DNA of 64,000 nucleotides from Bacteriovoracaceae bacterium (GCA_018649885.1 JABIHA010000074.1:1-64000), one strand, 5' to 3'; shown: positions 1 to 24,803, counted from the stretch's first letter. The notes: generated by a model not told the origin, from the letters alone. Made by a program: numbers and translations.

Positions 1-1
1 A

Positions 2-343: not shown

Positions 344-476
344 TCCCCCCCCAACCGTCAAATTTTTCAACAACCTAAAAAATATACACCTCCCCCTTCT
401 CCCAAATCCCACTCATTGATACCATTCATTCAACTTAAAATTTTGGTGGGCAACTTAAACAAACCGGGGAATACAA

Positions 477-1057: not shown

Positions 1058-1067
1058 ATTGATATAA

Positions 1068-1094
1068 TGGGGAGCTTGCGTCTCCCCTATTTTT
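1068..1094 (+). terminator. Probable intrinsic terminator between convergent genes
   Basis: GGGGAG-CTTGCGT-CTCCCC followed by TATTTTT. Confidence 0.5.
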
Positions 1095-1998
1095 GGACTT
1101 TGCTCAGCTGCTTTTTAATATAAAGAATATCACTTTTTTTGATCTTCCTTTTTCTCGCCAAACTCAAACTCTTTTTATAAGCATCAATACTTTTTTTCTG
1201 ATAGGTTTCAGCGCCTGCAATTTCTTGAACTTTTAAATGCTGATACCAAGCAAAGTAAATATCCCCTATATTAAAGGTGGCCCACACTTCCCGGCTTTGA
1301 TCTTGGCCTTTAGTGACTTGAAACTCAGTCCAATACTTGTGTGCCAATATGGCATTTTGGATGGCCTGTTCAAACTTTTTGAGAGAACTCAAAGTTCCAG
1401 ATAAATTATTGTGAGTTATGGCGAGGCTTTTTAACTTGTTATCTTTGTCATCAATATCAGAAGCAACTTTTAAGGCCTCGTTCAACCACTTCTCTGACAG
1501 ATCCCATCTTTTTAGAAAATAGGCATCGACGTCAAGGCTAATGAGTGCATCATGTAACTCCAAGGCGGACCCATATTTTTTAAAAACCTGATACTCTTTT
1601 TGGTGTAAGAATGTGGCCCCTTGATAGTTTTTATTCCATCTTTGCAGCCATCCCAACTTTTTGAGAAATCGACCTTTGAGTCTTTGGAATTTATCGGAGC
1701 TTTTGTGGTAGATTCGGCTGTGGCCTGTCTCTATTATTTCCAGGGCCTTTGGGAAATCTTTATCGGCCATGGCAAGTAGTCCATGAAAATAATTAACCCA
1801 AGCTGCTTCATATGGTCCATCAATTTCAGTGGTATTCAAAAACTGCCTAGCTTTAGCGCTTCCCCCATTATTAATAAGAAAAATGATATCTTTGTATTTT
1901 TCTGGCGGGGCCAAAATACCAGTTGGCCTCGAACTCAAAGAAAAGCTTGAGCACCCAAAAGTAGCACTTAATATCACAATTAATAAAACAATTCTCAC
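1087..1998 (-). CDS. TPR-repeat lipoprotein, last gene of the pel operon
   Basis: Lipobox-like signal (RIVLLIVILSATFG-C) and TPR-like helices; GTG at 1998 overlaps the pelG stop (GTGA); ORF track starts at 2016. Confidence 0.7.
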   Translation of the reverse strand: MRIVLLIVILSATFGCSSFSLSSRPTGILAPPEKYKDIIFLINNGGSAKARQFLNTTEIDGPYEAAWVNYFHGLLAMADKDFPKALEIIETGHSRIYHKSSDKFQRLKGRFLKKLGWLQRWNKNYQGATFLHQKEYQVFKKYGSALELHDALISLDVDAYFLKRWDLSEKWLNEALKVASDIDDKDNKLKSLAITHNNLSGTLSSLKKFEQAIQNAILAHKYWTEFQVTKGQDQSREVWATFNIGDIYFAWYQHLKVQEIAGAETYQKKSIDAYKKSLSLARKRKIKKSDILYIKKQLSKVQK

Positions 1999-3389
1999 TT
2001 CAATCCTGAAATCCATTTCATAGAAATTGGTTGTTCCATGAAGGTATAGTAGTTCAAATTTTTTAATCTTCTATTAAGATTAAAGTAGGAAAGAAGAAGC
2101 GTCAAAAAGCAGCTAATGACATAGCCCAAACCGTGGAAACGGTAACCAAATTTAAGGCTAACAGTGGTCAACAGGGCGTTGGAGACAAAGAATAGGAAAT
2201 ATGACCAAAAGACCGAGTGTTCGTCTCGGAAATAAAGAGACAATATATTCATGACCAAAAACATCACCTGGAGGTAGGCACCAATTATGCCATAGCGCAG
2301 TGGAGATTCAATTAATGGAGATAGGTAGAACACACTCAGAATTTTAGGCATAAAATACCAACACATGATGCTGACAAAAGTCTGTATCTTTAACATCATC
2401 CCAAAGGTTTCTTGTAATTTTTCACCAATTGTTCTACTGGCCTCTTCTAGAAAAGGAAGAGATTTCTTTTGTTCAATAGATTTAAAATAAAAATTATAAT
2501 AGGTATAAAAACTTGTTTCTACTTTTACTAAAAATATAGCAAGAGACGGAATAATAGAAAGGTAGGCCAAGAACATCGCCGTATCATAATATGGGTTAGT
2601 ATAAAAAGGACCGACTATTTGAACACCAATACTTGAATACCAAAATATGAGTTTATCAACCCAGATACCCATATAGTAGAACATTCCTATTCCAATTAGA
2701 ACCTTGCCTTTAAGGAAATATCCTCCCAGCTCATGGGTTGTGTATTCCTTACCTGAGAACTCAACGTAAACGAGTATAGAAAGTGACAAGGCCAAAACCC
2801 AAATACCAAGTGCGTAACCAAAAATAAAACCTGTCAGGCCAAAGCTTTTTCCCAAAATCGTGCTGAAGACCAAACTTAAGATCCCGCCCCCAACAAAACT
2901 TGCAATAATTTTTCCATACCCTTTAGCAGCACTAAGAAAAACCATCCCAACCCAAGTAGACAGAACACTAATTAAAAAAAGCACACCACCAACTTTGGCA
3001 TAGAGATCAATCGGAACAAAATAGTAAAAAAGATATCCTAGCACGGCGCCAGAAGCGACACATATTGATATCACCGTAAAAAAAACTCTTCTGAAGGTGC
3101 TCACATCATAGTGATAAATTTTATCACTAATATACCTTGTTAGAGGCAGTTCAATCATTCCAAATAGAATGAGACTTCCTGCATAGGTATAAGAAATAAT
3201 AGATTTAAATACTAAAAGCTCTTTGCCCACTAACCACTGTCTCGCATAAAGCGAAATGATGGCAATGCTTAGTATGGAAATTAGCCATGGCCCACTCGAT
3301 AAGACAATGGAGTAAAAGGCACCCTTAACTCTAGAAACTGAGCTATCATCTGAAAAATATTTATTAAGTCTAAACCCTATTCCCGCCAT
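1995..3389 (-). CDS. pelG: PelG, Pel exopolysaccharide inner-membrane transporter
   Basis: N-terminal MAGIGF, SSGPW, WVDK and YD..MFLAYL motifs; about 12 TM segments; directly after pelF. Confidence 0.95.
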   Translation of the reverse strand: MAGIGFRLNKYFSDDSSVSRVKGAFYSIVLSSGPWLISILSIAIISLYARQWLVGKELLVFKSIISYTYAGSLILFGMIELPLTRYISDKIYHYDVSTFRRVFFTVISICVASGAVLGYLFYYFVPIDLYAKVGGVLFLISVLSTWVGMVFLSAAKGYGKIIASFVGGGILSLVFSTILGKSFGLTGFIFGYALGIWVLALSLSILVYVEFSGKEYTTHELGGYFLKGKVLIGIGMFYYMGIWVDKLIFWYSSIGVQIVGPFYTNPYYDTAMFLAYLSIIPSLAIFLVKVETSFYTYYNFYFKSIEQKKSLPFLEEASRTIGEKLQETFGMMLKIQTFVSIMCWYFMPKILSVFYLSPLIESPLRYGIIGAYLQVMFLVMNILSLYFRDEHSVFWSYFLFFVSNALLTTVSLKFGYRFHGLGYVISCFLTLLLSYFNLNRRLKNLNYYTFMEQPISMKWISGLK

Positions 3390-4873
3390 GATGCCTTTCC
3401 GCCTACAAGTGAAAATTTGTTGTATAGATTCAAATGATTACTTAGGTAATGCTCTTCTGTGTAATACCGTTTTACCCTAATTTTTCCCACCTCGCCCATC
3501 TCTTTCATCTTCACAGGATTCAACAAGATAGTGGCAATGGAGTTTCCAAGCTCTTCAGGGTGGCCAAAAGGAACAACGTCGCCTGCAGGACCTAGATCTC
3601 TATCAGCTTGCTCCATTCCAAAAATTAATTCAGAACATGAGCCTACGTCTGTTGTGACACATGGGATGCCATAGGTGAAGGCCTCTAGCAAAACGATGGG
3701 TTGACCTTCACTTATACTTGAAAGGACCATAATATCTAGCTTAGGATAATAATCCACAAGATTAACATTCCCCGTAAACTCAATACAACTGTCAAGGCCC
3801 AGAAGGGAAATTAAATCCTTACACTCTAAGTAATAGTCGGGATCTTCTTCATAAGGTCCCATTACAATGACTTTAATATTTTCCACCCTCTCAAAAACCA
3901 AAGAAATACTTTTTATAAAGGTCTTTATGTCTTTAATGGGGACAACTCTGCCAACAAGGCCTATGACAAGCTCATCTCCTCTGTCAGAATCTCTTTTGGC
4001 ATCACCAATTTTTATTCCGTTTGGAATAATCTGACATTTAGACTTTTGAGCTCCAAATTTAATCTGTTTTTCTCGATTACCATTGTAAAGAGTTGTAATA
4101 GTATCAGCGTATTCATAAGCAGTTTTGCTCATGAAGTGAAACATATTTATCCACCAATTTTTGAAAAAAGGAAGCTTCTTTTCAATTTTCAGGCCAGATT
4201 CAAAATTATAAAGCCAGTCAGCCTGGGAAATTTCAATCTCCCTCTCATGGCTATAAATTCCATGCTCTGATATGATAAAAGGAGCACCATACCTTACCTT
4301 GGCAACAGCACCTAAAAGACCTGCATATCCAGTACTGAGAGAGTGATAAATGCTGGCCCTTGGAATTTCAGTTGATAGAATTTTAAAAATTGGAAGATTC
4401 AAATACCTCCAGCTATAGAAAAAATCGATAAAAGGAGGTGCCTCACGTAAAGAGAAAAGCTTTTGGTGCATATTTAAAATGCTATCCCACCCCTGCTTTG
4501 ATTTTAAAATATCAAATAAATTGATTTTTGCGGAATTTGAATCAATAAATTGTCGATAAAATGCTTCGAGTTTAAAGGCCTCGCCACTAGATACATGCTG
4601 ATGATAATCTTCGAATGTAGATGAATCAAAATCTCTGCCTAAATCAACTGCCTCTGTCTCAATGTCCTCTTCGTATAAAAATATTTCTTTTATAAACTCT
4701 ACATTGTCAGGAATTTCATATCTCGGTTTTTTTACATCGCCACTTTTTGCGCCTATATAAACAATTCCATAGGTTATATGAGGTGTCCCCTTGATTAGTT
4801 GGTAAACACATGCTGAAACTCCCCCTCGAACATAAGGATAAGTCCCCTCAAGAAGTAAGCAAACATCAGTCAT
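3377..4873 (-). CDS. pelF: PelF, GT4 glycosyltransferase
   Basis: EGTYPYVRGGVS, STGYAG, EHGIY..ER, GRVVPIKD and SISEGQP motifs; ATG at 4873 overlaps upstream stop (ATGA). Confidence 0.96.
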   Translation of the reverse strand: MTDVCLLLEGTYPYVRGGVSACVYQLIKGTPHITYGIVYIGAKSGDVKKPRYEIPDNVEFIKEIFLYEEDIETEAVDLGRDFDSSTFEDYHQHVSSGEAFKLEAFYRQFIDSNSAKINLFDILKSKQGWDSILNMHQKLFSLREAPPFIDFFYSWRYLNLPIFKILSTEIPRASIYHSLSTGYAGLLGAVAKVRYGAPFIISEHGIYSHEREIEISQADWLYNFESGLKIEKKLPFFKNWWINMFHFMSKTAYEYADTITTLYNGNREKQIKFGAQKSKCQIIPNGIKIGDAKRDSDRGDELVIGLVGRVVPIKDIKTFIKSISLVFERVENIKVIVMGPYEEDPDYYLECKDLISLLGLDSCIEFTGNVNLVDYYPKLDIMVLSSISEGQPIVLLEAFTYGIPCVTTDVGSCSELIFGMEQADRDLGPAGDVVPFGHPEELGNSIATILLNPVKMKEMGEVGKIRVKRYYTEEHYLSNHLNLYNKFSLVGGKASWRE

Positions 4874-6777
4874 AGGCACCTCTGTAAGTAGGGATACCAA
4901 TAAATGTGTGTTTCGCCTTGGTCTGCAATGAAGTTCAAAACAAAACCGAGCTGTTCTTTTCCAAAACAATCAGTCATAAGCTGTCTTGCACTTAAACTGT
5001 CTAGATCAGATAGTTCATGCCAATTACTATTTTCAACCCAAGCGACAATTCCTTCAGGACTTATACTATCGCCTTTTAAACTTTGCCGAAATTTATTGAC
5101 CAGACAAAACCCATTTTCAATATGCCCAACAGATCTGCTTTTAGCTAGGCAAGAATATATCTTTGATGAGAGATCATCTGGTAAACTCGCTAGGTTTAAA
5201 TCAATAATTTCCAGACACAATCTCAAGGGAAGATCGAGAAGTACTAATTCTGAGTAAAACGGCACAGATTTTACCATCTGAGAATGATTCTTTATCACTT
5301 CTGGAAAAAGAGTGAAAAATCTTGCTAAAACACGGTTTGCAGTTTTACCAATTCCGAATTCTTCAGCCTGTTCAAAGATGGTGGTAATAGATTTCAAATA
5401 AAGTCTCTTGGGATTTTGGTAAAAAAGATCAATGATTTTTAGAGCTATATTTTTATCATTACCTACTATTTTAAAAATGCTGGTCAGTTTGTCATCTTCG
5501 ATGAACTCTAAATTTTGCTCAACAAAATTAAGTAGACAAATATCTTCAAAATTAGAACGGTCTTTAATTTCAATCAAATGATCTGACAGCTTGTTTACAT
5601 TTTCTTTATCAAACCCACGATGGTGAGAAAGGATTGTCCATGAAAAATACTTAAAGACACGATCATCAGACTTCAAGCAATCAAGTAATAATTCATGAGA
5701 TGCTAGTTTTGAAACCATTAATATCTCTAGAAGCAACGATTTCAAGTAAGGGTTCTTCTTTTGCACCAGTAGCGTTTGAAACGCTGGAATCTTAACATCA
5801 CAAATATTTGAAGAAACCGCAAGGAGTACCAGGGTTTCTAATTGAGGATTGATTTTTTTGTGTTTTTTCAAATAGTAACTAATTATGTCATTAACATCTA
5901 GGTTAAGTAGTAAATTAAAAAATGAAGACTGCATTTCAAACCCTGAGAAGCTACTATAAAGTTCACTCATAAATCTCATGCTTAAACTATCATTTTTAAG
6001 ACCTTCAATAATAGATAATTTCACACTATGAGATTTTTCTTCCCGGAACCACTTAAGAAAACGTCTTCGGAAAAATGCGCCTTGATAACGAGACAAAGAG
6101 ACTAGCACTTTTGTCCTAATTTTTGAGCTGTCATGGTTTCTAAAGCTTGCGAGAAGTGAAAAATCTTTGAAAAGAAGGAATGCCGATATATATGATATAT
6201 ATTCTGAGAGCTCAGAGACATCAGGGATTCCCTTTTTTAAATTGGCCCTTGCTATGACAATCCCTCGATGCTCATGAAAGCTTTTCAATACACCAAGACT
6301 AAGAACCACAAGCTCAGAATCACATCGGTGAAGATTTTCAATAACAAATGGCAAAAATTCAATCAGATTATTCTCTCCAATAAACCGAGTAAAAAAGCTT
6401 CGTCCTTTTCCCGAAAGCGAAAGCGTTGCTTTTTTGAGAGAAATTAATTTTATGGTTCTTGTAATAATCTCGTCTGCTAAATACTCTTTAAGCATTTTCT
6501 CGCTATTTATTGAAATTGAAATTGAATCACTAACACCGAGTTCGCATAAGAGAGAAATTGTAAATGAAGAAAGCTCTATCTCTGATTCTGCTAAAATTTT
6601 ACTACACAGTGTAAAAAAGTCATCTGCCTTTACGGGGCATTCAGGGAGGCCTATGACACTCGCTAGAGTTTTAAGGTCAATCTCCTCACGCATTGAAAAG
6701 AATCGATCATATGCAACACTGCGGACTTGATATGAAGGACTATTAAAATCGCTTATGATATTTTCTACCACGCTCAT
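4870..6777 (-). CDS. Large alpha-helical HEAT/ARM-like repeat protein inside the pel operon
   Basis: 635 aa, Leu-rich helical, HEAT-like segments (SPSYQVRSVA, HDSSKIRTKVL); ATGA overlaps at both ends. Confidence 0.7.
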   Translation of the reverse strand: MSVVENIISDFNSPSYQVRSVAYDRFFSMREEIDLKTLASVIGLPECPVKADDFFTLCSKILAESEIELSSFTISLLCELGVSDSISISINSEKMLKEYLADEIITRTIKLISLKKATLSLSGKGRSFFTRFIGENNLIEFLPFVIENLHRCDSELVVLSLGVLKSFHEHRGIVIARANLKKGIPDVSELSEYISYISAFLLFKDFSLLASFRNHDSSKIRTKVLVSLSRYQGAFFRRRFLKWFREEKSHSVKLSIIEGLKNDSLSMRFMSELYSSFSGFEMQSSFFNLLLNLDVNDIISYYLKKHKKINPQLETLVLLAVSSNICDVKIPAFQTLLVQKKNPYLKSLLLEILMVSKLASHELLLDCLKSDDRVFKYFSWTILSHHRGFDKENVNKLSDHLIEIKDRSNFEDICLLNFVEQNLEFIEDDKLTSIFKIVGNDKNIALKIIDLFYQNPKRLYLKSITTIFEQAEEFGIGKTANRVLARFFTLFPEVIKNHSQMVKSVPFYSELVLLDLPLRLCLEIIDLNLASLPDDLSSKIYSCLAKSRSVGHIENGFCLVNKFRQSLKGDSISPEGIVAWVENSNWHELSDLDSLSARQLMTDCFGKEQLGFVLNFIADQGETHIYWYPYLQRCL

Positions 6778-7742
6778 TTACGTCCCTCCTCATTAGTAAC
6801 CAGCTGATAATATTCTTCTTTCTGGTTTAAATAGTAGAATGCTTTCGTTTTTAAAGATAAGGCCTTTTCATATAGCATCTCTTTTTCACATAAAAGATTC
6901 TTGGCCTTTTCAAAAAAAGATAGCACTAATTGGTATTGTCCTTTTAAATAGTATATCTCAATAACACGGTAGTAACTTTCTACACTTGTAGTATTAAGTT
7001 GAATTGATGATAGAAAGTCGTATAGAGATTTTTCTAAAAACCTTTGAGATGTAAGTCCGTCAAGTAAATCATATTTGTAAAATTTCAAATAGGCAGTTGC
7101 TCTATCAAACAGTAAGTCAGAAGAGTGAGGATATAGTGAAATAGATTTGCTAATATCATGGATATGGTCAATAAATCTTTTTTCAATTTTATCTAATGCA
7201 CCATTTGCAAAGTAACTAACTTCATATGAAGGATCTTTTAGGGCCATTTTAAGAAGTGTTACACTCTCTTTACTTGTGGTCCTCGATAAACGTTCGATGG
7301 CACTCAATTTCAGTTGATTATTACCTGACATAAATATTTCGCCGTAACTGGCGAGATCAGTTGGCAGTTTCTCCCATTTCTCAACAATTTTTTGATTAAT
7401 ACTTGCAATTTTTCCGTCTATTTCCAAAGAGTAATCACGATACGACTTTTCAAAAAAGGTATCAACAATAAACCCTTCAAATTCAGAGTCCGAAACCTTC
7501 CTTGAAAAAATATAAAATACTAGTACAGACAACATTCCAATAATGGGTAAGAATAAATCTAAGAGAAAAACCAATACCATTCTACTCTTTTCAACACCAC
7601 CTTTGTAAAAAACAAGTAGTACAAAAACACTAATAAGCGGAGAAGCGATACAAAGCCATAGATTAAGCTCAAGAGCTAGAACTCTAAACAAAACGAGAGA
7701 AATGGTTTTAAATAGAAATAATGAACAGATCAGTTTTGTCAT
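6774..7742 (-). CDS. pelE: PelE-like protein (TM helices + HEAT/TPR)
   Basis: N-terminal TM helices with LFLPIIG, then LLKMALKDPSYEVSYFA HEAT motif and TPR; sits after pelD. Confidence 0.8.
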   Translation of the reverse strand: MTKLICSLFLFKTISLVLFRVLALELNLWLCIASPLISVFVLLVFYKGGVEKSRMVLVFLLDLFLPIIGMLSVLVFYIFSRKVSDSEFEGFIVDTFFEKSYRDYSLEIDGKIASINQKIVEKWEKLPTDLASYGEIFMSGNNQLKLSAIERLSRTTSKESVTLLKMALKDPSYEVSYFANGALDKIEKRFIDHIHDISKSISLYPHSSDLLFDRATAYLKFYKYDLLDGLTSQRFLEKSLYDFLSSIQLNTTSVESYYRVIEIYYLKGQYQLVLSFFEKAKNLLCEKEMLYEKALSLKTKAFYYLNQKEEYYQLVTNEEGRK

Positions 7743-8966
7743 TTAATTCAATATTGGTTGCATATTCACACCAATATCTCCTCCCATTTCACGATCAAAT
7801 TCTTTCAAATATGTTATAAATTCGTCATCACTATCACAGTCTAAGTTTATATAGATATACTCCAGCTCACTTTCACCCTTTGCCAAAAGTTCATTTTGGT
7901 GCAATTTCTTTGGCCAAAGTTTTTTAACTATATCTTCAGTTGTTTTTCTTCCATCGACTGAACTACCTCGATAGTCGATGCTAATTTTAGTTTGCCTGCT
8001 GGATTTCAATGCTTTCGACGGGTTTAACACATGAAGAGATTTCGAAGTCAGAATATTTCCCTGATCATAAAATATTTGACCGCACTCCAAGGCCAATCTC
8101 TTTTTTTGAATCTCAATAGACCTCTCAATCAGCTTAACAACTGGTTTAAGTTCATCCATCTTAACATCTACAAAATTTTCAAAAGGAATATCCTCAATCA
8201 CAATCGCCCCAGTAGTCTGATTGGAGGCCTTGAGCCGAAATGCGACCCCTCCTATAAAATCAAATGGCCAGCTCTCGTGGTTTGCTAGTATACTACTACA
8301 CTCAGGATGCTCTTCAAAACACGGTAAGACCTTTTTGGCATTTTCATCAAAGTAAGACCAAGCTGAGTCACCATCAATTGATGTAACGATACTTATATTT
8401 TCACTGCCTAAGTAACCTTTAAATAACTCCACCACTCCTTGTGCCCATGCTTCCTCACGACCACTAAATATCTTTTCAAAAGATTCTGTTAGAGATGCCT
8501 CACTTGATACACGCCCTAGAAACTTTCGCCCCAGCTCTTTAAGTTCCTCTTCAAGCTCCAAGGATTTCGTAAGCACTGTCTCGAGGTGTATTCTTTGCTC
8601 TTCATGTTTTTTAAGAATTTCCAAATTCTTTCTTCTAAATCTATTAACAGACTCAGCAATAACAACTGGTATAATTAAAATAGAAAGCCCAAGAGATAGA
8701 TAAGGCGCGGTAAAGATGGTATCAATTTTCTGAAAGTCTGCCTGAAAATTAACCGTCCAAAAATAAAAGATTGATAAGGCAATACTAAAGACACCTACCT
8801 CAGCTGCATTTAACAATATTGAAGTAAAAAGTGCCAAGACTAAAAATGGATTTGGGGAGTGTCCCGTAAAGGCAAGATTATCAGGTGATTCAACTCTTCC
8901 TAGAAGGTGAATTCCTGCAATGGCAATTATTGTAAAAATGACAAATTTGACTTTTCTATTAATCAT
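7743..8966 (-). CDS. pelD: PelD-like protein (DUF4118-type TM region, GAF, degenerate GGDEF-like tail)
   Basis: N-terminal TM helices with PNPF, coiled coil, GAF-like GAIVIEDIPF; position before pelE. Confidence 0.75.
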   Translation of the reverse strand: MINRKVKFVIFTIIAIAGIHLLGRVESPDNLAFTGHSPNPFLVLALFTSILLNAAEVGVFSIALSIFYFWTVNFQADFQKIDTIFTAPYLSLGLSILIIPVVIAESVNRFRRKNLEILKKHEEQRIHLETVLTKSLELEEELKELGRKFLGRVSSEASLTESFEKIFSGREEAWAQGVVELFKGYLGSENISIVTSIDGDSAWSYFDENAKKVLPCFEEHPECSSILANHESWPFDFIGGVAFRLKASNQTTGAIVIEDIPFENFVDVKMDELKPVVKLIERSIEIQKKRLALECGQIFYDQGNILTSKSLHVLNPSKALKSSRQTKISIDYRGSSVDGRKTTEDIVKKLWPKKLHQNELLAKGESELEYIYINLDCDSDDEFITYLKEFDREMGGDIGVNMQPILN

Positions 8967-9337
8967 TTTTGACCTCTTCCAATTGAATCGAGAACTCGCT
9001 TAACTAGATCTGAGGGCATAACAGGTTTTTGAATATAATTTAACTTCATTTTGTTTACAAGCATCAACTCACTACTATTTAGATTCTTAGTAGTGAGAAA
9101 AATAATTGGTACACCCAGGTAATCAACATTTTCGCGCACTTTTTGGGCCACTTCAAGGCCATCCATTTCATCCATAATATAATCAAGAATAATTAATGAA
9201 TATTTTTTTTCTTGTATTTTTTCGATGGCAAGAATGGGATTACTAGCTGAATCAACTTTCACATTGTGAAACTCGAGCAAGCTATTTATAATAAATAAAA
9301 ATTCCTGACTATCATCAATTACTAGTATTTCTGTCAT
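8963..9337 (-). CDS. Single-domain response regulator (REC)
   Basis: VIDDS, ILDYIMDEMDG (phospho-Asp), FLTT and QKP all canonical. Confidence 0.93.
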   Translation of the reverse strand: MTEILVIDDSQEFLFIINSLLEFHNVKVDSASNPILAIEKIQEKKYSLIILDYIMDEMDGLEVAQKVRENVDYLGVPIIFLTTKNLNSSELMLVNKMKLNYIQKPVMPSDLVKRVLDSIGRGQK

Positions 9338-9340
9338 AAT

Positions 9341-12025
9341 TCAAAAGATTAGATTTAAGGCCAATCCTCCCTTAATATTTTCATTATTTTTATCACCACT
9401 ATTTTCAAAACTATATGAAAGATCTATTCCAACACTACTATTTTTAATAAAATCATATTCAATCAATGAATTAATTTCCCTGCCAAAAACCAATCCACGT
9501 TTTTTTTGAAATCCTAAGTTGGCACGTATATTTGTTTTAAGTCCTAGAGGACCAATTTTTTTGTCAAATCCAAATACTCCACCCAATTTAAGAATATCGC
9601 TTTCATTTTCATTGTACTTTGATTCGGAAATTGCCTCTAGAAAGGGTCCCATTTCAAAAGAGTGATCCTTTGTAATTTTTCTCAAATAAGACAAACCCAC
9701 TGTGCTTTCAGTATGTTTTTTGTCTTGAACTATAGGAGACTTACTTTCAAAGTAAGTGGTAAAACGATTTTTGGTGCTGGGAGTCCACTCTAAATAACTT
9801 TCAATTGAATTTTTAATAAGAGATGCTCTATTTAATAACTCTCTCTCTTCATCAATGATTTCTGAACTCAATTTAAAACTCCAGAATATTTTTTCCATAT
9901 TCAAAACAGAGAGTTCAACGGAGATAGGCATTTTCCCAAGGTGCTCACTACTATTAAAAAGGTATCCAACTGTAATTTTTCCAAAGTTTAGGTAGTAACT
10001 AATGGCAGGGAGTACTTGTTCAAGATGATTTTTCTTTTCTGAATCACTAGAGAACCTTGAATATTCAATTGAGCTTTCAAAACTCGAAAACCTTTTAGAT
10101 ACCTTGGCAGTGCCAGAGATATAATTAAGTTGACCTTGTTTGATGGCATTAGCAGTTGTTTTAATTTTAAACTGCTTCTCAACTTGTTCCTTGTTACGGA
10201 GGTAAGTAAGATAGTTTTTTTGGGACTCAGATTCTGCATCACTGCCTAGTGTCTTTTCTTTTTCATGAATAAAAGATTCAGCGGCCTTGGTTTCCCCTGC
10301 ATCTAACGAAGCATAAATCGCTGAATTTTTTAATTCAATACTATCTGGAAATTTAACGAGTGCATTTTCTAGCGTAGCAATTGCGAGTCGTCTATTTTGT
10401 TTGTTAAAATAGCATCTTGAGACGGCCAAATACTCTTCATCCAATGTAAAAGAGGCTTTCGATATCACATGATTACAATATTCGTGATATTCGTCCAGTT
10501 TGTCTGCAAGGGCAAGGAGCTCTATTTTTTTCACAGTGTAATAAGGATCTTGTGCTAAATTCCTATACTTCATGGCCAGCTCTAGCTGATTCAAGGCCTT
10601 CACAACACTGCCTGAGCCCTGCAACTGATTGACGTAGTACAAGTTGGCCTGATGATGAGATGGTCGTTTTTGAATTAAATACAATGCCGCTTGCTCAGCA
10701 GTACTATTTTCTGAAAATCTGATTGCAAGATCAAGGATTAACTCTGCCAAATCATGGTCTCTATTTTTATTTTCCCACACAGGAGCAACAAGAGCATAGG
10801 ATTTTTTATATTCACCTTTTTCGTAATGTAAACTCGCGACCTTCAAGATGACACGATCTCTTTCAGTGATTTTCTTTATAGAAGATGGGCTTCGACCATT
10901 TTTATCTGAGCTACTTAAATACTTATAATAATAAATCAGTGCCTGGTCTTTATTGCCAATTAGCTCATAAATTTCACCTAGTTCTTTATAAATTGTAGGC
11001 ATGATATTTTTCTTAAGTATAATTCGATGATAAATCCTAAGTCCTTGTGTGTACTCTTTTATTTCTATCCACCTGAGTGCCAATTGATGAAGACCGCTGC
11101 TCGACTCTTCCATTGCACTTTCATAAATTTTGTAGATACTTTTTATTTCTTCAAGATTCCCACTCTTTTTCATTCTATCTGAATGGGCAAATGCAATAAA
11201 GTCAAGGCCTGGGTGCGCTTTAAACATCTCTGCCCAAAATTCACTCTCTCTTTTTTTGCCAAACACTAACCCCGTTAATTTGCTGACAATCCTTATATAC
11301 TCAAATTCCTCTATGAATATTTTTTCAGGCATATTTAATATATCTTCAGGATTTTTAAAACGGGGATTTAAGTAAATTAAAAAGTTTTTAAGCGCCTGTC
11401 CTGCATTTAATGAGAGTTGATAAGCTTCGGCCAAAATCTTTCTCATTTCCCTATCATTTTCTAATTTTAAATAATTCTCTAGAAAAATAGTGGTTTTTTT
11501 AACATCACCGATTGAGATATAAAATGCTGAGGCCAATCTCAAGTTATTAGGCAATTGACTGCCAAGGATTTCACTAAAAATCCTATCGGCATCTACATAC
11601 ATTTTTAAATAGCGGTAACCTTCAGCGACTTTAGTTTTTTCGAGATAGAGCTCTTCTCCCTTGAAAAATTTAAAGCTCAACTCTCTCGCTTTTAATGCAT
11701 CAACAGGTCTTCGGTCCCAATCTGAGAGTTTTTTTAGCTCGCCAATATATTCCTGATTCTTTGGTCTCAATGCGACCACTTTCTTTTGAATATCAATGGC
11801 CTTTTGTAAATCACCCTGCACTACAAAATAGTCTTTTATTTTTTTTAGTGCAAAAATATTTTTTGAATCTGCCTTATTTACTTTTACCAGATAATGAAAG
11901 GCGCTCTCAAAATCATAGCTATTAAAATAGGTCATCCCAAGCTTTAAATCACTTGGAATAGTTGCTAGCACAGCAACGACAACGCTAAAGATAAAAACAA
12001 CTACCATCCCCTTACCTATTTTCAC
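9341..12025 (-). CDS. pelB: PelB-like TPR + outer-membrane beta-barrel export protein
   Basis: N-terminal hydrophobic segment, long TPR region, C-terminal beta-strands ending in Phe; GTG start with AGGAGG; follows pelA. Confidence 0.75.
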   Translation of the reverse strand: MKIGKGMVVVFIFSVVVAVLATIPSDLKLGMTYFNSYDFESAFHYLVKVNKADSKNIFALKKIKDYFVVQGDLQKAIDIQKKVVALRPKNQEYIGELKKLSDWDRRPVDALKARELSFKFFKGEELYLEKTKVAEGYRYLKMYVDADRIFSEILGSQLPNNLRLASAFYISIGDVKKTTIFLENYLKLENDREMRKILAEAYQLSLNAGQALKNFLIYLNPRFKNPEDILNMPEKIFIEEFEYIRIVSKLTGLVFGKKRESEFWAEMFKAHPGLDFIAFAHSDRMKKSGNLEEIKSIYKIYESAMEESSSGLHQLALRWIEIKEYTQGLRIYHRIILKKNIMPTIYKELGEIYELIGNKDQALIYYYKYLSSSDKNGRSPSSIKKITERDRVILKVASLHYEKGEYKKSYALVAPVWENKNRDHDLAELILDLAIRFSENSTAEQAALYLIQKRPSHHQANLYYVNQLQGSGSVVKALNQLELAMKYRNLAQDPYYTVKKIELLALADKLDEYHEYCNHVISKASFTLDEEYLAVSRCYFNKQNRRLAIATLENALVKFPDSIELKNSAIYASLDAGETKAAESFIHEKEKTLGSDAESESQKNYLTYLRNKEQVEKQFKIKTTANAIKQGQLNYISGTAKVSKRFSSFESSIEYSRFSSDSEKKNHLEQVLPAISYYLNFGKITVGYLFNSSEHLGKMPISVELSVLNMEKIFWSFKLSSEIIDEERELLNRASLIKNSIESYLEWTPSTKNRFTTYFESKSPIVQDKKHTESTVGLSYLRKITKDHSFEMGPFLEAISESKYNENESDILKLGGVFGFDKKIGPLGLKTNIRANLGFQKKRGLVFGREINSLIEYDFIKNSSVGIDLSYSFENSGDKNNENIKGGLALNLIF

Positions 12026-14000
12026 TTCTCCCTCCTATTTCGAAAAGAAAAGCACTCTCGCGAGTTACTCCATCAGCAGTATCAATTTTTCCATTGGCCT
12101 TTTTTACTTCCTTGACCCAACCATTACATGACTTTATATATTCTTGTTTCGGCGGTTTATGAGACAAGACGATATTGGCGTGATCATCACTCCCAAGATA
12201 GAGGTACAAACTACCTTGATAAAATCCATGCCCAATAATATTCTTTGATTTATTGTAGTCAGGGTATCGCCCGTCTTGTTCAAAGCGTATTGTTTTTATA
12301 TATTTAGCATTTTCAACTCTGTAGTTACCAACATCTTGCTTATAGGTTTTTATTTCCTGATAATTGCTAATAAGCTTAATATAGTCACTTGCAAACATCA
12401 TGGTTTTATCTGTTTTGTCTAACCACCTGTATATATCGTTAAGCGCCTTTAGTGAGGCAATCTTCTCACCTGAATAAAAATGATAGTAAATATTTATTGG
12501 TTTAATTCTTACCGGGCTTTCTGTTCGCTCAAATGTTTCAATCACATCTTTAAAACCACTATAAGGACCTTCCCAGGTATTGGTATAAATATTTTCGTTG
12601 GCATTGGAAGCATAGACTTGTGTATACTCCTCAACTGTTCTGTACAAAGATGATAGGTTTGAGTAGCTGTTATATATACGATCGAAGCGACTATCCCCGC
12701 CATTCATATTGAGAATTCCACTCAATGCACTTTGCCTTAGCGCTTCCTTCGGAGGTCTGCATGAGCCTGACCACAACAACACATTTGTTTTTTTTCCCTC
12801 TGACACCAAATTTTTATTGATGTACTCCAAGGAGCTTACTACTTCAGTTTGATAATTGAGATCATATCCTGGGATGTCATAAGCCAGGATCGTCCCTTTG
12901 TGAGAGAGGTGATCATCGCCTAGATACGAGACGACCTCTTCGCTAGATGGGTTTTTCTCCCAACTTAAAGGATGAGAATATGTGTGACTTGCAGCTTCGA
13001 CATAGGGAAGTGAGAATAATTTTTTAGTCTCACTCACCGCCACTTCATTCCCTTTGAGATTTGGGTCAATTTCGGCAACTACTACTGAGGCCGTCGTGGG
13101 AAATTTATATTTTTGAACAATTTTTTCACTTACAATCTTCCCGCTATTACTCTTTCTATCAATATCACTGATATTTATAAAACCATCTCCATCAATATGG
13201 ATATATGAGATCCTATTTCCACACAATGTAGTTGTGTCAGGAATAGGTATATCGACAACTCCATACACCTTCTCTATTAGTTTAAAAGGATTAACTCTCC
13301 ACTGAGTTCGATGGTTGTAAGGATCAGAAAATATATCAAATCCTTCCTGTACATACCCAAATCTGGTAGAAAAGGTAATTACATCTGCAGGGATTTTCTG
13401 TCCCCTCACCTCAATTTGTAACCAATTTTCTGCTCGAGGTTTCTTATTCTGGACTAATCTAACATAATTGATTTCCCCAACGAGGGTTCTTTCAAACTCA
13501 ACAAGATCTTTATTAAAATTATCCTTAGTTTTAAAAAGTAATGAATTTTCAAAGAAAAGATCGTAAAACGTTAAACCAACACTACGTAGCCTTCTATTTA
13601 CGATATTCGTCCTGACAACTTTCCCATTTTGATCTTTAAATGCTCCCAGCTCTCCCATAACTAAAGTAGGGATTTTTAATTCTAATACTTGCTCAAGCCA
13701 AGCAAGGTAACTTTTTGGAGATTTTTGCTTTTGATCTAAAAGCCAAGAGACAATCCCAGCATACTGCTGCTTCAATTTAATTGGTGAGATTCTTGGAACT
13801 CCATTATTTAGATCATGATATTCCAGTATATAACCGTAGTGATTGAAGACCACTTCAAAGTGCTTGTGGAGATAAGTTTGTTCATACTCAGAGGTTGAGT
13901 ATTCGGTACTGTCCCACAATGCTAGAATTCTACGTTTTATTGGGGCTGCATTAACGTTGACTGCGATTAGTAAAAGTAGGATAGCAAGTGACTTGATCAT
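12012..14000 (-). CDS. pelA: PelA-like polysaccharide deacetylase lacking the N-terminal glycoside hydrolase domain
   Basis: Signal peptide; PIPDTTT, HIDGDGF, ASHTYSHP, NENIYTN.W and YYHFYS motifs; ATG 14000 with RBS overlaps kinase stop. Confidence 0.9.
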   Translation of the reverse strand: MIKSLAILLLLIAVNVNAAPIKRRILALWDSTEYSTSEYEQTYLHKHFEVVFNHYGYILEYHDLNNGVPRISPIKLKQQYAGIVSWLLDQKQKSPKSYLAWLEQVLELKIPTLVMGELGAFKDQNGKVVRTNIVNRRLRSVGLTFYDLFFENSLLFKTKDNFNKDLVEFERTLVGEINYVRLVQNKKPRAENWLQIEVRGQKIPADVITFSTRFGYVQEGFDIFSDPYNHRTQWRVNPFKLIEKVYGVVDIPIPDTTTLCGNRISYIHIDGDGFINISDIDRKSNSGKIVSEKIVQKYKFPTTASVVVAEIDPNLKGNEVAVSETKKLFSLPYVEAASHTYSHPLSWEKNPSSEEVVSYLGDDHLSHKGTILAYDIPGYDLNYQTEVVSSLEYINKNLVSEGKKTNVLLWSGSCRPPKEALRQSALSGILNMNGGDSRFDRIYNSYSNLSSLYRTVEEYTQVYASNANENIYTNTWEGPYSGFKDVIETFERTESPVRIKPINIYYHFYSGEKIASLKALNDIYRWLDKTDKTMMFASDYIKLISNYQEIKTYKQDVGNYRVENAKYIKTIRFEQDGRYPDYNKSKNIIGHGFYQGSLYLYLGSDDHANIVLSHKPPKQEYIKSCNGWVKEVKKANGKIDTADGVTRESAFLFEIGGRSENR

Positions 14001-15934
14001 CTTCCCTCCCACGTTTTCATAGAAGAGCCAAACTCAGCTATAGTTTTTTTCCAAATATTAACAAGATAGTTCTTTTCATATACAATATTTTCTATTTCCT
14101 GGTTTTCAATTAAATCAATCATTCTCTTGCAATGTGTCTCTAGCCTTTTTGCACCAATACCATGTGAGGTATTACGCAACGTATGGACGATCTTGTATAA
14201 TCCTTTTTGATCAATACCGCTTTCCAGTGATGTAATGGATTTATTAGACTCAGCTTCAAAAATACTATACATCTCAAATAAAAATTGTTCATTATTTGAT
14301 AGCTTTTGTAATTCACTAAGCCTGCCATCATCAATATACATATTGTTTTCAAAAGGAAGTGCTGACCACTGTTTAACGCAATTAATTAATTCTTCTCTTC
14401 CATACGGTTTTTGTAGAATATCACTGACAGTTCCATTTTTTTTGAGTTCATAAACCTTTTCAGATGTTTCGGCGGTCAGTAATACCACAGTGGGTCGACG
14501 TTCTAATGGGATCTTTTTCTTGAGCTCACCAATCAGTTCATCTCCGCTCGTTCCATTAATATTGAAATCAATGAAAATAAGATCAAATATACTCGATTCT
14601 AATACTTGGTCCACATCTTGAGCACTATTAAACGTTTCAATACTTCCCGGAATATCCTTCAAATATAGACCAAATATTTTATTATGAATTAAATCATCAT
14701 CTACAAGTAAGATATTGCATTCCCGACTTCCCCCTTCTTTGACATCAACCTTGGGAGTGCCCTTAAGGGTGGGGAGATTTAAATAAAAAGAAAAAGTACT
14801 TCCTTCACCACTTTTACTTTTTATCTCGAGCCTTGAATCCATGGCCTTTAAAATATTTTGGCAAATTGCAAGACCTAGACCTGTACCTCCATATTTTTGG
14901 AAGATAGATGAATCCTCTTGCCTGTGAGATCTCAGGATACTGCTTGTATATTCTTTTTTAATACCCTTTCCTGAATCGATTACTTTAAATGAGAGTGTCG
15001 CCATCTTCGAGCTTTGTTGTATTAATTTACAGCTAAAGATTACTGAGCCTGCATCTGTAAATTTAATGGCATTATCTATTAAATTCTGTAGTACTTGCTT
15101 TATCCTAGTGGCATCACCGCAATAGCTGAAGTTATCGGCCTTTTCAATTTGAAAACTTAGATTTATATTCTTTGCTTCGGCCTTAAATTTTGAAATGGTG
15201 AAAATTTCGCCAAAGATCTGAGAGATGTCTATTTTTTCATCTCTAAGTGAAAAGGTTCCCGACTTTAGTCTAGTCATTTCGAGCAGATCATCAACGATTC
15301 TTTGGAGCGAATGCCCAGATTGTATAATCTCTTTTACTGTATTTTTCTCATCTTCACTCCGAAGACGTTTTAACAATTCATTGCTCAGTCCCATTACACC
15401 GCTAATTGGTCCTTTTAATTCGTGACCTATTGTGGCCACAAACTCTTCTTTGTGGGAAACAAGCCCTTCTAATTTCTTTTTACTTGCGCTTAGTGTTTCA
15501 ATTGCATCTAAACTATTTTCTCTTTCTTTTTTTACTCTTAATGAAAGAAAGATTCTATTAAATAGTAAAGGAAAAGAGATAGGGATTGTTACGAATTGAT
15601 TTATATCCAAATTCAAAACAGAGTAGTCTTCATTTTTAATATGATCTCTATAGAGCCATATAATGGGCAGGTTACACGAGTCATGAACCTCTCGAATTAA
15701 TTTAACAACTGCAATCCCATCGGGATATTCTATTCCCTCATCTATGATTAAAATATCGTAATCTTTTTCACTTAATTTCTTTAGTATTTCAAATCCTGAA
15801 TTGGTTGTGTCGACACTAATGCCGCGCGAATCGAGGCGTTTTGCAATGACTTTACGATAAATAGCATCTTGAGAGGCGACCAATGCCTTCCCTGAAATCA
15901 TATCAATGCCTCTAGTCTCGTTGTTCAAATTCAT
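13997..15934 (-). CDS. Cytoplasmic hybrid histidine kinase (REC-HisKA-HATPase-REC-Hpt)
   Basis: GHELKGP H-box, NLIDNAIKFT, DSGKGI, GGTGLGL, two REC domains, HTLRNTS Hpt; no TM segment. Confidence 0.92.
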   Translation of the reverse strand: MNLNNETRGIDMISGKALVASQDAIYRKVIAKRLDSRGISVDTTNSGFEILKKLSEKDYDILIIDEGIEYPDGIAVVKLIREVHDSCNLPIIWLYRDHIKNEDYSVLNLDINQFVTIPISFPLLFNRIFLSLRVKKERENSLDAIETLSASKKKLEGLVSHKEEFVATIGHELKGPISGVMGLSNELLKRLRSEDEKNTVKEIIQSGHSLQRIVDDLLEMTRLKSGTFSLRDEKIDISQIFGEIFTISKFKAEAKNINLSFQIEKADNFSYCGDATRIKQVLQNLIDNAIKFTDAGSVIFSCKLIQQSSKMATLSFKVIDSGKGIKKEYTSSILRSHRQEDSSIFQKYGGTGLGLAICQNILKAMDSRLEIKSKSGEGSTFSFYLNLPTLKGTPKVDVKEGGSRECNILLVDDDLIHNKIFGLYLKDIPGSIETFNSAQDVDQVLESSIFDLIFIDFNINGTSGDELIGELKKKIPLERRPTVVLLTAETSEKVYELKKNGTVSDILQKPYGREELINCVKQWSALPFENNMYIDDGRLSELQKLSNNEQFLFEMYSIFEAESNKSITSLESGIDQKGLYKIVHTLRNTSHGIGAKRLETHCKRMIDLIENQEIENIVYEKNYLVNIWKKTIAEFGSSMKTWEGR

Positions 15935-17217
15935 ACTACCTGTAGTAATAAATCAAATGCCCATAGCATTTGGGAGTTTCTATATTTGTTTTCTAATTCT
16001 GATAAAATTAACTCTTCATCGAGGTGATGGTACTTAACTTTTTTTAGTTTTGTTAAATATTCTTTTGCAACTAAGAATATCATCAAGGTTCTATCCATTA
16101 CCTCTTCATCAATCCCGTATGGGTATCCAGATCCATCCCAACTCTCATGATGTTTGAGGATCATATTCTCGACTTTTGTTTCCGAAAACATTGAATTTCT
16201 CAAAAGCTGTGAGGCAAGAATCGGATGATTTAATATTTGTTCTTTTTCTATTGGGTCTAGTAGATCTAGATTAGATTTGCTTCCCTCTGATTTTGAATTC
16301 ATTTCTTGACCATCAATTCCAACATCGTGAAGTAGCGATGCCAAGCAAATCCCTTTTAAATCATCTAGTGTACTTTCTTCTGCAGCAGCAATCATTTTGC
16401 TACACAAAATGCTAAGCATTAGCCCATGCTCAGATATAAAAAGGTACTCTTCTTTCATAATGAAGTACTTTAAAACCTGTGCCAATTTTTCAATGCTTTC
16501 ACACTGCTCTAAAATCGCCTTCGTTATGTAGGCAAGTAGGTATAAGACCGTTTTATTAAGTCCTATCTTTTTGGCCAGCTCAATTGAGAGGTAATGGAAT
16601 TTGAATAGGAAAGGTGCTATCTGCGATAAATTGGATTCATCAACCTCTTTTAACTGTGAAAAAAGTCTATTGGCAACAAGTGAAATGACTTCTACGTAGT
16701 CTTCACTTTTGACGTAGAGGTATTCAACTTTATTTAAATTTTCAATTGTTGAAAATGCAGGCAATAGTTTGCCATCCCCAATGGGCAATAGAATATATTT
16801 TTCGTCACTAACTTTAACATATAGTTCTATTTTAATTTCCTCAATACTTTCAAGGAGATTAATTCTAACTCTCTCAAACTCACCTAAGCCTTTTTTGGGA
16901 TTTCCATCTTTACAAATGGCCTCATCAACAATTTTCAATAATTGATCTAAGTCTAAAGGGTCAATAACTTGCCTTAAATTGTCGTCACAGTTTTTTAGTC
17001 CTGCCGGAAAACGATATGAAAATACCTTTCGACCTTTGACTTCTGGCCAGGGGAAAAATTGTTCATTGGCAATAATGATACAAGGGGACTCATCAAAAGT
17101 AGTTCCCTTTTGATCAAATTTTGAAAAGGTCACGACATCGTGACCTAGTTCAAATTTAATGGAACTGGAAATTAATTCTCTTAAAGAATCAATTTCTTCA
17201 GCTACGTACACGAGCAT
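15931..17217 (-). CDS. HD-GYP family protein with degenerate N-terminal REC
   Basis: LLHDVG, NHP and HHESWDGSGYP; ATG 17217 preceded by GGGGAG; ORF track starts at 17262. Confidence 0.85.
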   Translation of the reverse strand: MLVYVAEEIDSLRELISSSIKFELGHDVVTFSKFDQKGTTFDESPCIIIANEQFFPWPEVKGRKVFSYRFPAGLKNCDDNLRQVIDPLDLDQLLKIVDEAICKDGNPKKGLGEFERVRINLLESIEEIKIELYVKVSDEKYILLPIGDGKLLPAFSTIENLNKVEYLYVKSEDYVEVISLVANRLFSQLKEVDESNLSQIAPFLFKFHYLSIELAKKIGLNKTVLYLLAYITKAILEQCESIEKLAQVLKYFIMKEEYLFISEHGLMLSILCSKMIAAAEESTLDDLKGICLASLLHDVGIDGQEMNSKSEGSKSNLDLLDPIEKEQILNHPILASQLLRNSMFSETKVENMILKHHESWDGSGYPYGIDEEVMDRTLMIFLVAKEYLTKLKKVKYHHLDEELILSELENKYRNSQMLWAFDLLLQVV

Positions 17218-18199
17218 CAAGCTCCCCCAACTTCTTTTCCCAATTAAGTGCAGTTTCCACAATGATCTTTAAACTTTGGTACTTTGGCTCCCAACCCAGT
17301 ACTTCTTTTATCTTTCCACATTTTGACATAACAACGCTGGCATCTCCTGGTCGTCTGGGTGCTAGCTCGACACGGAAATCAACTCCCGATATTTCTTTAA
17401 CAATATTCAATACTTCATTGACACTAAAACCTGTGCCGTACCCGCAATTCAAAATGTGAGATTTTTTATTCACAAGTAGATACTTCAGCGCATTTACATG
17501 TGCCATTGCTAAATCTTGGACATGGATATAATCCCTGATGCAAGTACCATCGGCCGTCTCATAGTCAGTCCCAAATACCTTCATCCCTTCTCTTTTCCCA
17601 AGTGCTGTTTCACAAGCAACTTTGATAAGATGTGTGGCGCCTGGAAAACATTGTCCTATTTGGCCAGATGGATCGGCTCCCGACACATTAAAGTATCTAA
17701 GTGCAATATAATTGAACTGCTCATGGGCAAAAGAAGTGTCTTTTAGCATTTGTTCAGTCATCAACTTTGAATGACCATAAGGATTAATGGGAGAGGTCTT
17801 TGCTTGTTCGTCCGCAACGCCATCTTCTAGCATCCCATATACTGCTGCCGTAGAAGAAAAAATAAAATTTGGTACACCATATTTCTTACAAAGATTAATG
17901 ACTCTAAATGAATTAACGGTATTGTTACTATAATAACTAAGAGGATCTGAAACTGAATCAGGAACAACGATGCTTCCAGCAAAATGCAAAACACCAACGA
18001 ATTGATTGTCTTTAAATAGCTGCTCGATGGAATCTTGATCTTCTAGATGACCTTCAACAAACTCCCCAAATAAAACATTTTCACGTCTTCCAGTGGAAAG
18101 GTTGTCGTATACAACGATCTCGAAACCTTCTTCTCCTAAACATTTGACTACATGTGAGCCGATATATCCGGCGCCACCAGTAACTAAAATTTTCCCCAT
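17198..18199 (-). CDS. galE: UDP-glucose/UDP-GlcNAc 4-epimerase (PelX role)
   Basis: GGAGYIG, SSTAAVYG, YGHSK, LRYFNV and RDYIHV motifs. Confidence 0.95.
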   Translation of the reverse strand: MGKILVTGGAGYIGSHVVKCLGEEGFEIVVYDNLSTGRRENVLFGEFVEGHLEDQDSIEQLFKDNQFVGVLHFAGSIVVPDSVSDPLSYYSNNTVNSFRVINLCKKYGVPNFIFSSTAAVYGMLEDGVADEQAKTSPINPYGHSKLMTEQMLKDTSFAHEQFNYIALRYFNVSGADPSGQIGQCFPGATHLIKVACETALGKREGMKVFGTDYETADGTCIRDYIHVQDLAMAHVNALKYLLVNKKSHILNCGYGTGFSVNEVLNIVKEISGVDFRVELAPRRPGDASVVMSKCGKIKEVLGWEPKYQSLKIIVETALNWEKKLGELDARVRS

Positions 18200-20361: not shown

Positions 20362-20367
20362 TGCCAG

Positions 20368-24800: not shown

Positions 24801-24803
24801 AGT

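Follow-up and report, generated by a model that had tools for sequence, protein, structure and literature searches.

Production of the Pel exopolysaccharide is, in the textbook account, controlled by binding of cyclic di-GMP (c-di-GMP) to PelD. The Pseudomonas aeruginosa protein uses residues R367, D370 and R402, their Bacillus cereus counterparts are R363, D366 and R395, and alanine variants of the three B. cereus residues lost c-di-GMP binding (10.1101/768473; this and the other sources cited below were available in part, and statements about them refer to those parts). Here we analyze a 64,000-nucleotide (nt) stretch of DNA from a Bacteriovoracaceae bacterium (GCA_018649885.1 JABIHA010000074.1:1-64000), referred to as a whole as the window, in which 12 genes with the makings of a Pel operon include a receiver (REC) gene beside pelD and a HEAT-repeat gene between pelE and pelF. 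The explanation that we favor, and to which we give about an even chance of being right as a whole, is that the 12 genes form one Pel-type exopolysaccharide operon, that this operon belongs to a variant class spread over multiple phyla whose core holds two extra cytoplasmic genes, REC and HEAT, and that polymerization in this class is gated by REC phosphorylation. In gene order, with positions counted from the first letter of the window, the genes are:

17198..18199, minus strand: galE, a GalE/PelX-like UDP-hexose 4-epimerase, first gene (TIGR01179, 448.8 bits, cut-off 262.3)
15931..17217, minus strand: predicted HD-GYP phosphodiesterase resembling Bd1817 and extended at its N-terminus by about 110 amino acids (aa) (Pfam HD_5, 32.1 bits, cut-off 27.2)
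13997..15934, minus strand: soluble hybrid histidine kinase with REC-like, HisKA, HATPase_c, REC and putative Hpt parts (Pfam, NCBIfam)
12012..14000, minus strand: pelA without a hydrolase domain (reductase-like, deacetylase and C-terminal parts), secreted (profile against 9cgy; motifs)
9341..12025, minus strand: pelB-like export protein with TPR repeats and an outer-membrane barrel, 894 aa (TPR families; Atlas neighbours)
8963..9337, minus strand: single-domain receiver (REC), 124 aa, overlapping the pelD start by 4 nt (Response_reg, 71.6 bits)
7743..8966, minus strand: pelD-like, 407 aa, with transmembrane helices, coiled coil, GAF and degenerate GGDEF; c-di-GMP site (I-site) HQNE in place of RxxD (profile, fold)
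6774..7742, minus strand: pelE-like membrane-anchored helical-repeat protein, 322 aa (hydrophobic N-terminus, repeats, position)
4870..6777, minus strand: cytoplasmic HEAT-repeat solenoid, 635 aa, a conserved extra gene between pelE and pelF (profile, model)
3377..4876, minus strand: pelF, GT4 glycosyltransferase (NF038011, 472.1 bits, cut-off 100; DUF3492, 257.7 bits)
1995..3389, minus strand: pelG, inner-membrane Pel export/synthase component (PF16933, 394.7 bits over residues 1-450, full length, cut-off 29)
1087..2016, minus strand: TPR lipoprotein, overlapping pelG by 22 nt (TPR_12, 35.1 bits; Cys after a hydrophobic leader)

Set beside the pelABCDEFG operon of P. aeruginosa, the window has homologues of PelF and PelG, the deacetylase part of PelA, an exporter built of TPR repeats and a barrel, a putative PelE and a PelD in which transmembrane, GAF and degenerate GGDEF parts are recognizable, in the order A-B-(x)-D-E-(y)-F-G. 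It differs from that operon in lacking PelC and the PelA hydrolase domain, in the addition of REC and HEAT, in a PelD with HxxE for RxxD, and in the kinase, HD-GYP and galE genes joined to it. The Gram-positive pel clusters (B. cereus pelDEA_DA FG, with separate pelA_H, galE and cdgE/cdgF) resemble the window in their split PelA, nearby epimerase and adjacent c-di-GMP turnover genes, and these three traits are thus already known; those organisms are, however, monoderm and without a PelB-type exporter, whereas the window organism is diderm with a TPR-barrel exporter. In Streptococcus pel variants the GGDEF domain of PelD has been lost, and c-di-GMP-independent control of an unspecified kind has been proposed (10.1101/768473, PMC7890745). 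PelX, a UDP-GlcNAc C4-epimerase, adjoins pel in Pseudomonas protegens and over 100 species (10.1101/2020.05.26.111013). An SDR-family epimerase gene likewise adjoins pel in the window, but the encoded enzyme scores as a GalE equivalog.

Two further exopolysaccharide (EPS) systems combine receivers with EPS control and serve as precedents for the mechanism proposed below. In the EpsW-EpsZ system of Myxococcus xanthus, a single-domain regulator, once phosphorylated, binds an EPS enzyme directly and thereby activates it; unlike the window system, this one forms part of a Wzx/Wzy pathway, with a phosphoglycosyl transferase as target and the chemosensory DifE as kinase, and the same paper describes synthase-dependent pathways as c-di-GMP-regulated (PMC12802240). 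BcsE, of Escherichia coli-type cellulose secretion, contains a REC*-GGDEF* tandem in which GGDEF* is structurally closest to the PelD C-terminal domain (PMC7439463). In BcsE, and presumably also in the window, a receiver fold next to a degenerate GGDEF controls a synthase-dependent EPS machine. The BcsE domains are fused and the receiver was judged phosphotransfer-incompetent, whereas the window receiver is a separate protein whose phospho-acceptor set is complete in most lineages.

The case for a variant class comes from a scan with a PelF profile over one genome per species, which gave 61 loci; their open reading frames (ORFs) were labelled with profiles built on the window and on four relatives. 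One gene order, pelA(deacetylase)-pelB-REC-pelD-pelE-HEAT-pelF-pelG, frequently with a GH114 gene after it, is shared across phyla: we found it in Bdellovibrionota, Omnitrophota, Elusimicrobiota, Spirochaetota, Lindowbacteria and metagenome-assembled genomes (MAGs) labelled Deltaproteobacteria, Myxococcota or Pseudomonadota. In the tree of PelF, the REC-bearing loci include Bdellovibrionota, Myxococcota-labelled MAGs, Elusimicrobiota, Spirochaetota, Lindowbacteria and others. A sequence-only reading of the window had described a variant Pel operon that includes signalling genes, and REC bears this out, its place between pelB and pelD being conserved far beyond this genome.

We took a census of receivers over the 46 of the 61 loci that have a PelD-like ORF and at least 450 nt visible upstream of it. 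The window REC has all five phospho-acceptor residues (D8, D9, D52, T82 and K104), and a canonical REC (DD/D/(T,S)/K) lies directly upstream of pelD in 27 of the 46 loci. Ten others (L016-18, L020, L042-44, L049, L051 and L055) have in that place a receiver-like protein whose acidic pocket is degraded or whose match is weak; the proteins of L016-18 are receiver homologues by hhalign (probability 97.2%). No receiver was detected upstream of pelD in the remaining 9, which include two weak PelD matches in Chloroflexota loci of different layout (L069, L070) and two high-GC loci in which ORF calls are unreliable (L062, L066). The receiver ORF runs 4 or 8 nt into pelD in 19 of 31 cases and lies 1-37 nt away in the other 12. 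Protein searches were uninformative on REC-PelD fusions: the one for longer proteins returned only generic GAF/GGDEF/kinase proteins, and the one at near length returned 4 proteins, with only the 7,996 candidates sharing most words being scored.

The sequence-only reading had REC occupying the place of PelC, and we rejected REC as a PelC replacement. A lipoprotein gene follows pelB in five loci, and a profile of the five sequences identifies it as PelC (9h80, E 6.8e-20; also 5t0z, 5t10 and 5t11). Three of these loci (L023, L028 and L053) read pelB-pelC-REC-pelD with HEAT present and so carry both pelC and REC, which indicates that REC was inserted beside pelD and not in PelC's stead; in the other two (L058 and L063), where the order is pelB-pelC-pelD, REC and HEAT are both lacking. 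The window operon contains no PelC gene, and the PelC profile found in the window's genome (92% complete) only a match of 17.8 bits (E 0.006) at an LpoB-like gene. Judged from these sequences, the absence of PelC is a separate loss in the Bdellovibrionota clade.

The HEAT gene accompanies REC closely. Of the 61 loci, 50 have a HEAT match along with PelF, and the gene is present in all 27 loci with a canonical REC. The profile of the HEAT protein matches alphaRep/HEAT proteins (E 4.8e-31), and its structural model is an all-helical solenoid of 38 helices with a predicted local distance difference test (pLDDT) score of 83.9. Foldseek neighbours of the model are SF3B1, CAND1, importin-beta and the PP2A A subunit, which are generic eukaryotic scaffolds and give no functional clue.

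The protein encoded next to REC fits PelD. Its profile matches GAF chains, GGDEF chains and P. aeruginosa PelD (4euv, E 4.7e-5), and its model (pLDDT 76.1) consists of long N-terminal helices followed by two alpha/beta domains, with the PelD structures 4etx, 4eu0 and 4dn0 among the top 6 Foldseek matches (probability 0.97-0.99, at a weak E of about 2.5e-3). We aligned the I-site in 45 rows, or 43 after L069 and L070 were dropped. Both residues of the RxxD column pair are intact in 30 of the 43 PelD-like sequences; 41 sequences have the Asp, and the Arg position is variable. Apart from L049, the window, with HQNE, is the only row without both residues.

The 5' part of the cluster could supply a phosphorelay. 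In the kinase, Pfam detects HisKA (51.5 bits), HATPase_c (79.5 bits) and two Response_reg stretches (one at 85.2 bits); Hpt scores 21.8 bits, just below its cut-off of 24.6, and the ArcB and TorS models align through residue 605. The NCBIfam models that align to the kinase are TorS, BarA and ArcB. On paper the relay would be complete, consisting of an H-box, an internal REC whose residues are canonical, a putative Hpt that scores below threshold and the terminal REC. The description of the system as self-contained is doubtful, as the kinase has no recognizable sensor domain. The HD-GYP protein contains the motifs LLHDVG and HHESWDGSGYP, the latter a complete HHExxDGxGYP signature that aligns to 4mcw; its best matches in the PDB are Bd1817 (3tm8, E 2.6e-5) and that HD-GYP protein (4mcw, E 1.7e-4), and it is apparently a complete c-di-GMP phosphodiesterase.

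From these parts we propose the following mechanism. The soluble hybrid kinase would autophosphorylate, and the phosphate would pass from His to Asp to the His of Hpt and on to Asp52 of REC. Phospho-REC would bind the cytoplasmic GAF/degenerate-GGDEF part of PelD, or a PelD-PelE-HEAT-PelF assembly, and once bound would switch on polymerization by PelF/PelG. In most relatives the REC input would add to c-di-GMP sensing at the PelD RxxD, while in the window's genome, where PelD has HxxE instead, phosphorylation would probably be the main input. The HD-GYP enzyme would hold down c-di-GMP locally or act on some other output, UDP-GalNAc would come from GalE as it does from PelX, and the HEAT protein would act as a scaffold. 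A fuller version of this proposal, which we offer tentatively and with rather less than even confidence, is that a Pel class in at least five phyla is switched by two-component phosphorylation, that REC docks on PelD and acts together with c-di-GMP in most lineages and in its place where the I-site has decayed, and that HEAT is an unrecognized subunit of the synthase.

Several observations weigh against phosphorylation gating. The 10 loci with degenerate acidic pockets, and at least 5 HEAT-type loci without a receiver, indicate that phosphorylation is not universally required. The N-terminal receiver-like domain of the kinase lacks the usual acidic pair and Lys in the translation, and the N-terminus of the HD-GYP protein is also without canonical residues. 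GalE, HD-GYP and kinase genes were found upstream of pel in none of nine relatives (5-10 kb upstream of pelA or pelB read), where the neighbours are unrelated housekeeping genes, so the link between kinase and REC rests on adjacency in one genome. The I-site reading draws on alignments that are 11-19% identical to the window and on a region of the model with a pLDDT of about 60-70; loss of c-di-GMP binding by the window PelD is accordingly a prediction. Finally, RxxD persists in most relatives and the operon itself codes for an HD-GYP enzyme that is apparently complete, so that c-di-GMP can be argued to matter still.

This last point leads to the alternative that survives best, which we nevertheless consider unlikely: that c-di-GMP remains the switch, that the kinase and REC control the HD-GYP enzyme, in the manner of RpfC/RpfG, or a cyclase elsewhere, and that PelD still senses c-di-GMP, in the window through other residues. 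A hybrid kinase with Hpt paired with an HD-GYP regulator is the RpfC/RpfG pattern, and here the HD-GYP gene, with its full motif, has a 4-nt overlap with the kinase gene. There are 3 GGDEF genes in the genome, RxxD is intact in the 30 sequences counted above, and R392 of the window PelD sits 33 residues past E359, by eye about as R402 sits past D370 in P. aeruginosa. Against this alternative, the N-terminal region of the HD-GYP protein has no receiver match in the Pfam scan and, in the translation read by eye, an Asn at the would-be phospho-Asp position. Moreover, no other pel locus seen has the HD-GYP gene, while REC keeps its position beside pelD, and a phosphodiesterase that the relatives lack does not explain that fixed place. 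The phosphorylation-gated system suggested from the sequence alone is supported in part: the phospho-acceptor residues of REC are kept, but the HD-GYP enzyme, the GGDEF genes and the RxxD of most relatives speak for a continued role of c-di-GMP.

We regard as quite unlikely a second alternative, in which REC is a structural or adaptor subunit that partners HEAT, PelE or PelF and not PelD, phosphorylation is dispensable or vestigial, and the kinase block is a recent, loose accretion. The 10 loci that keep a receiver-fold gene despite the lost acidic pocket agree with it, as do the co-occurrence of REC and HEAT and the restriction of the kinase block to this genome. However, the full set of phospho-acceptor residues survives in 27 of 37 receivers from distant phyla, a pattern that speaks for selection on phosphorylation, and the ATGA overlap ties REC to pelD specifically. 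Least probable of all is that galE, HD-GYP and kinase form a separate regulatory unit that abuts pel and controls something else: the three genes are not syntenic with pel in relatives, and promoter-like hexamers occur inside the cluster (for example 14109-14082, minus strand), albeit no more commonly than in shuffled sequence, but the kinase stop overlaps a pelA start preceded by GGAGG, the 12 genes run without a gap, and an epimerase already has a Pel role as PelX.

Phosphorylation gating of the REC- and HEAT-bearing class remains our preferred reading. Upstream synteny in relatives separates the signalling genes: REC holds its place, whereas kinase, HD-GYP and GalE do not. A scan of metagenome contigs with the HD-GYP protein returned only a contig 100% identical to the window and no diverged relative of the block. 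Together with their absence from the nine relatives, this indicates that, as far as the data go, the galE, HD-GYP and kinase genes would be an accretion peculiar to this organism. The HD-GYP protein has no clear orthologue in 5 Bdellovibrionota relatives (G041-G045), in which we found 7-15 paralogues per genome at 19-35% identity, a large HD-GYP family next to the mere 3 GGDEF matches in the window's own genome. Histidine kinases lie within 10 kb of several other variant loci in non-homologous places (L045, L047, L059 and L072; further off in L014), a proximity that is only a hint. The interest of the locus lies, in our view, in the conserved REC-PelD pairing and the HEAT subunit, and not in the kinase block that the sequence-only reading had stressed.

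Other two-component genes were seen near related clusters. In Omnitrophota locus L045, a REC-PAS-HisKA-HATPase kinase gene (7096-8592) lies about 200 nt after pelG on the same strand and is followed by a 125-aa receiver ORF, while the pelD-adjacent region runs off the contig; this is another way to join two-component genes to this Pel class. Three relatives among Bacteriovoracaceae/Halobacteriovoraceae (L077:1098-1511, L078:1116-1529 and L079:9560-9973) have a divergent 137-aa receiver/FleQ-like ORF some 400 nt ahead of pelA (Pfam FleQ at 23-27 bits; Response_reg at 24-26 bits, below cut-off), a possible second small receiver accompanying the variant cluster. In related locus L039 an epimerase gene stands directly after pelG.

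We examined the layout of the cluster with best-supported start codons. The 12 consecutive ORFs run on the minus strand from 18199 to 1087 with no intergenic gap anywhere; the 11 junctions, in gene order, are -20, -4, -16, -14, +3, -4, 0, -4, -7, -13 and -22 nt. The tight, co-oriented arrangement noticed at first reading, with junctions from -22 to +3 nt, is therefore confirmed. The third junction, between kinase and pelA, becomes -4 instead of -16 if pelA begins at ATG 14000, which is the most likely start, with GGAGG ahead of it and an ATGA overlap with the TGA of the kinase gene. The HD-GYP gene starts at ATG 17217, with GGGGGAG ahead, and the pelF start is M32 (4876), in agreement with homologues. 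Upstream, a 353-nt gap separates the cluster from a divergent gene for an extracytoplasmic function (ECF) sigma factor; downstream, a hairpin (1069-1087) lies between the cluster and a convergent gene.

A scan for consensus matches found promoter-like sites at chance level (61, against 63.3 +/- 8.2 in shuffled sequence) and terminator-like sites above expectation (24 against 12.9 +/- 3.1), the latter all weak and the DNA AT-rich; the scan played no part in delimiting transcription units. The best minus-strand promoter-like site, a consensus match only, is at 18265-18236, just 5' of galE. The divergent group at 18553-20361 (plus strand) comprises the ECF-type sigma factor (Sigma70_r2/r4), a 129-aa ORF and a DUF3106 protein. 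The 129-aa ORF, beside the sigma factor gene, has no family match and is possibly an anti-sigma factor. This group could be a transcriptional input to the operon promoter region.

The cluster is not an assembly chimera. This was ruled out by a separate metagenome contig, L083, which is 100% identical to window positions 12716-27173 and bridges the kinase/pelA junction, and by contigs of four other marine metagenome runs, which cover 29 or 30 of 30 bins of positions 1-19500 with 0 differing letters listed. In all four marine runs we also observed a record that joins position 7527 to 14077 through 13 foreign letters at a depth of 2.7-6. The two positions have no common k-mer of 8 or more, and the 13 letters are absent from the window; the join could reflect either an unrelated unitig aligned by chance or a rare variant with a deletion that removes pelD(5')-REC-pelB-pelA-kinase(3').

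The gene identities proposed at first reading largely hold. PelF, PelG, GalE, the hybrid kinase, HD-GYP and REC are clear, pelB and pelD fit by architecture, and pelE is a candidate by architecture and position, whereas pelA turned out to lack the hydrolase domain. As single sequences, the pelA, pelB, pelD and pelE proteins gave no family-specific match, and the 666-aa pelA protein gave no Pfam or NCBIfam match of any kind. A 4-sequence pelA profile matches PDB PelA (9cgy) over residues 437-814 (E 3.8e-91) and weakly over residues 257-351, the protein contains the motifs IHIDGDGF and HTYSHP, and its N-terminus resembles a signal peptide. Nothing in the profile matches 9cgy before residue 257, that is, there is no N-terminal glycoside hydrolase domain in the same protein. 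Relatives have a separate gene after pelG for a GH114 protein (Pfam PF03537, PelA-hydrolase-like); in the window's genome a GH114 homologue, 32% identical, is unlinked and on another contig.

The pelB-like protein has TPR and BcsC matches, and its feature and structure neighbours in the Atlas are TPR proteins and PgaA-barrel porins. Its assignment is by architecture, no PelB-specific match having been obtained, and it is homologous to the gene in the same position in relatives. The pelE-like protein is likewise assigned by architecture (generic repeat matches) and position; its profile shows HEAT-like repeats at 128-191 and TPR repeats at 238-309, and a homologous gene is present in relatives. 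PelG is the sole PelG match in the window's genome. The TPR lipoprotein encoded by the last gene has only generic TPR proteins and lipoproteins as Atlas neighbours and no homologue in the 61 related loci, in which relatives carry the GH114 gene in that place. The Halobacteriovorax-type loci L012, L013 and L015 depart from the common order: pelA(deacetylase) is missing upstream of pelB, and the gene after pelG encodes a penicillin-insensitive murein endopeptidase, not GH114 (Peptidase_M74, 277 bits in the equivalent locus L007).

We placed the window by its PelF. In a FastTree phylogeny of 54 PelF sequences, it falls within a fully supported clade of 21 whose named records are Halobacteriovorax, Bacteriovoracaceae, Bdellovibrio and Oligoflexia MAGs, which makes the earlier label of a predatory lineage reasonable at family level. 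The window's genome measures 5.4 Mb. PelG is present in 6 of 41 genomes searched (the window's own and relatives), and 3 of these are among 24 other genomes of the same family. Locus L015, from a record titled Sulfitobacter sp. MAG, has a pel layout nearly identical to that of Halobacteriovorax L013, and its PelF is the closest tree neighbour of L013 (end branches 0.036 and 0.022); probably the contig was binned wrongly or carries a wrong label.

The arrangement had been put forward as undescribed, and we found no description of a receiver or HEAT gene inside pel clusters in full-text searches of the literature; an epimerase beside pel is already in print, as PelX. In the parts available of the main texts of the operon classification PMC7112194, 10.1101/768473 and PMC7890745, the terms 'response regulator' and 'receiver' occur 0 times. 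The epsSMASH preprint (10.64898/2025.12.21.693542) reports new classes of 'pel-like' clusters in which pelFG are conserved and which are distantly homologous to pelABCDEFG, and these may include the present class; its available text has 0 occurrences of 'response regulator', and its supplements may bear on novelty. The Pel variant with REC and HEAT is thus widespread and seemingly undescribed.

Pel is among the most widespread biofilm polysaccharide systems, and a receiver gene locked to pelD across phyla suggests that this synthase-dependent machine has a second post-translational input, based on phosphorylation. It also suggests that PelD-type degenerate GGDEF proteins possibly act as split REC-GGDEF modules. 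The presence of HEAT, the absence of PelC and the division of PelA imply that export and synthase complexes of this kind differ from the Pseudomonas model used for structural work. Because the window operon encodes kinase, receiver and target together, it is a natural construct for testing the idea, and a related locus in a record titled Bacteriovorax stolpii, a culturable species, suggests a tractable host. If the fuller version of our proposal is true, this would be the first phosphorylation-gated synthase-dependent exopolysaccharide system.

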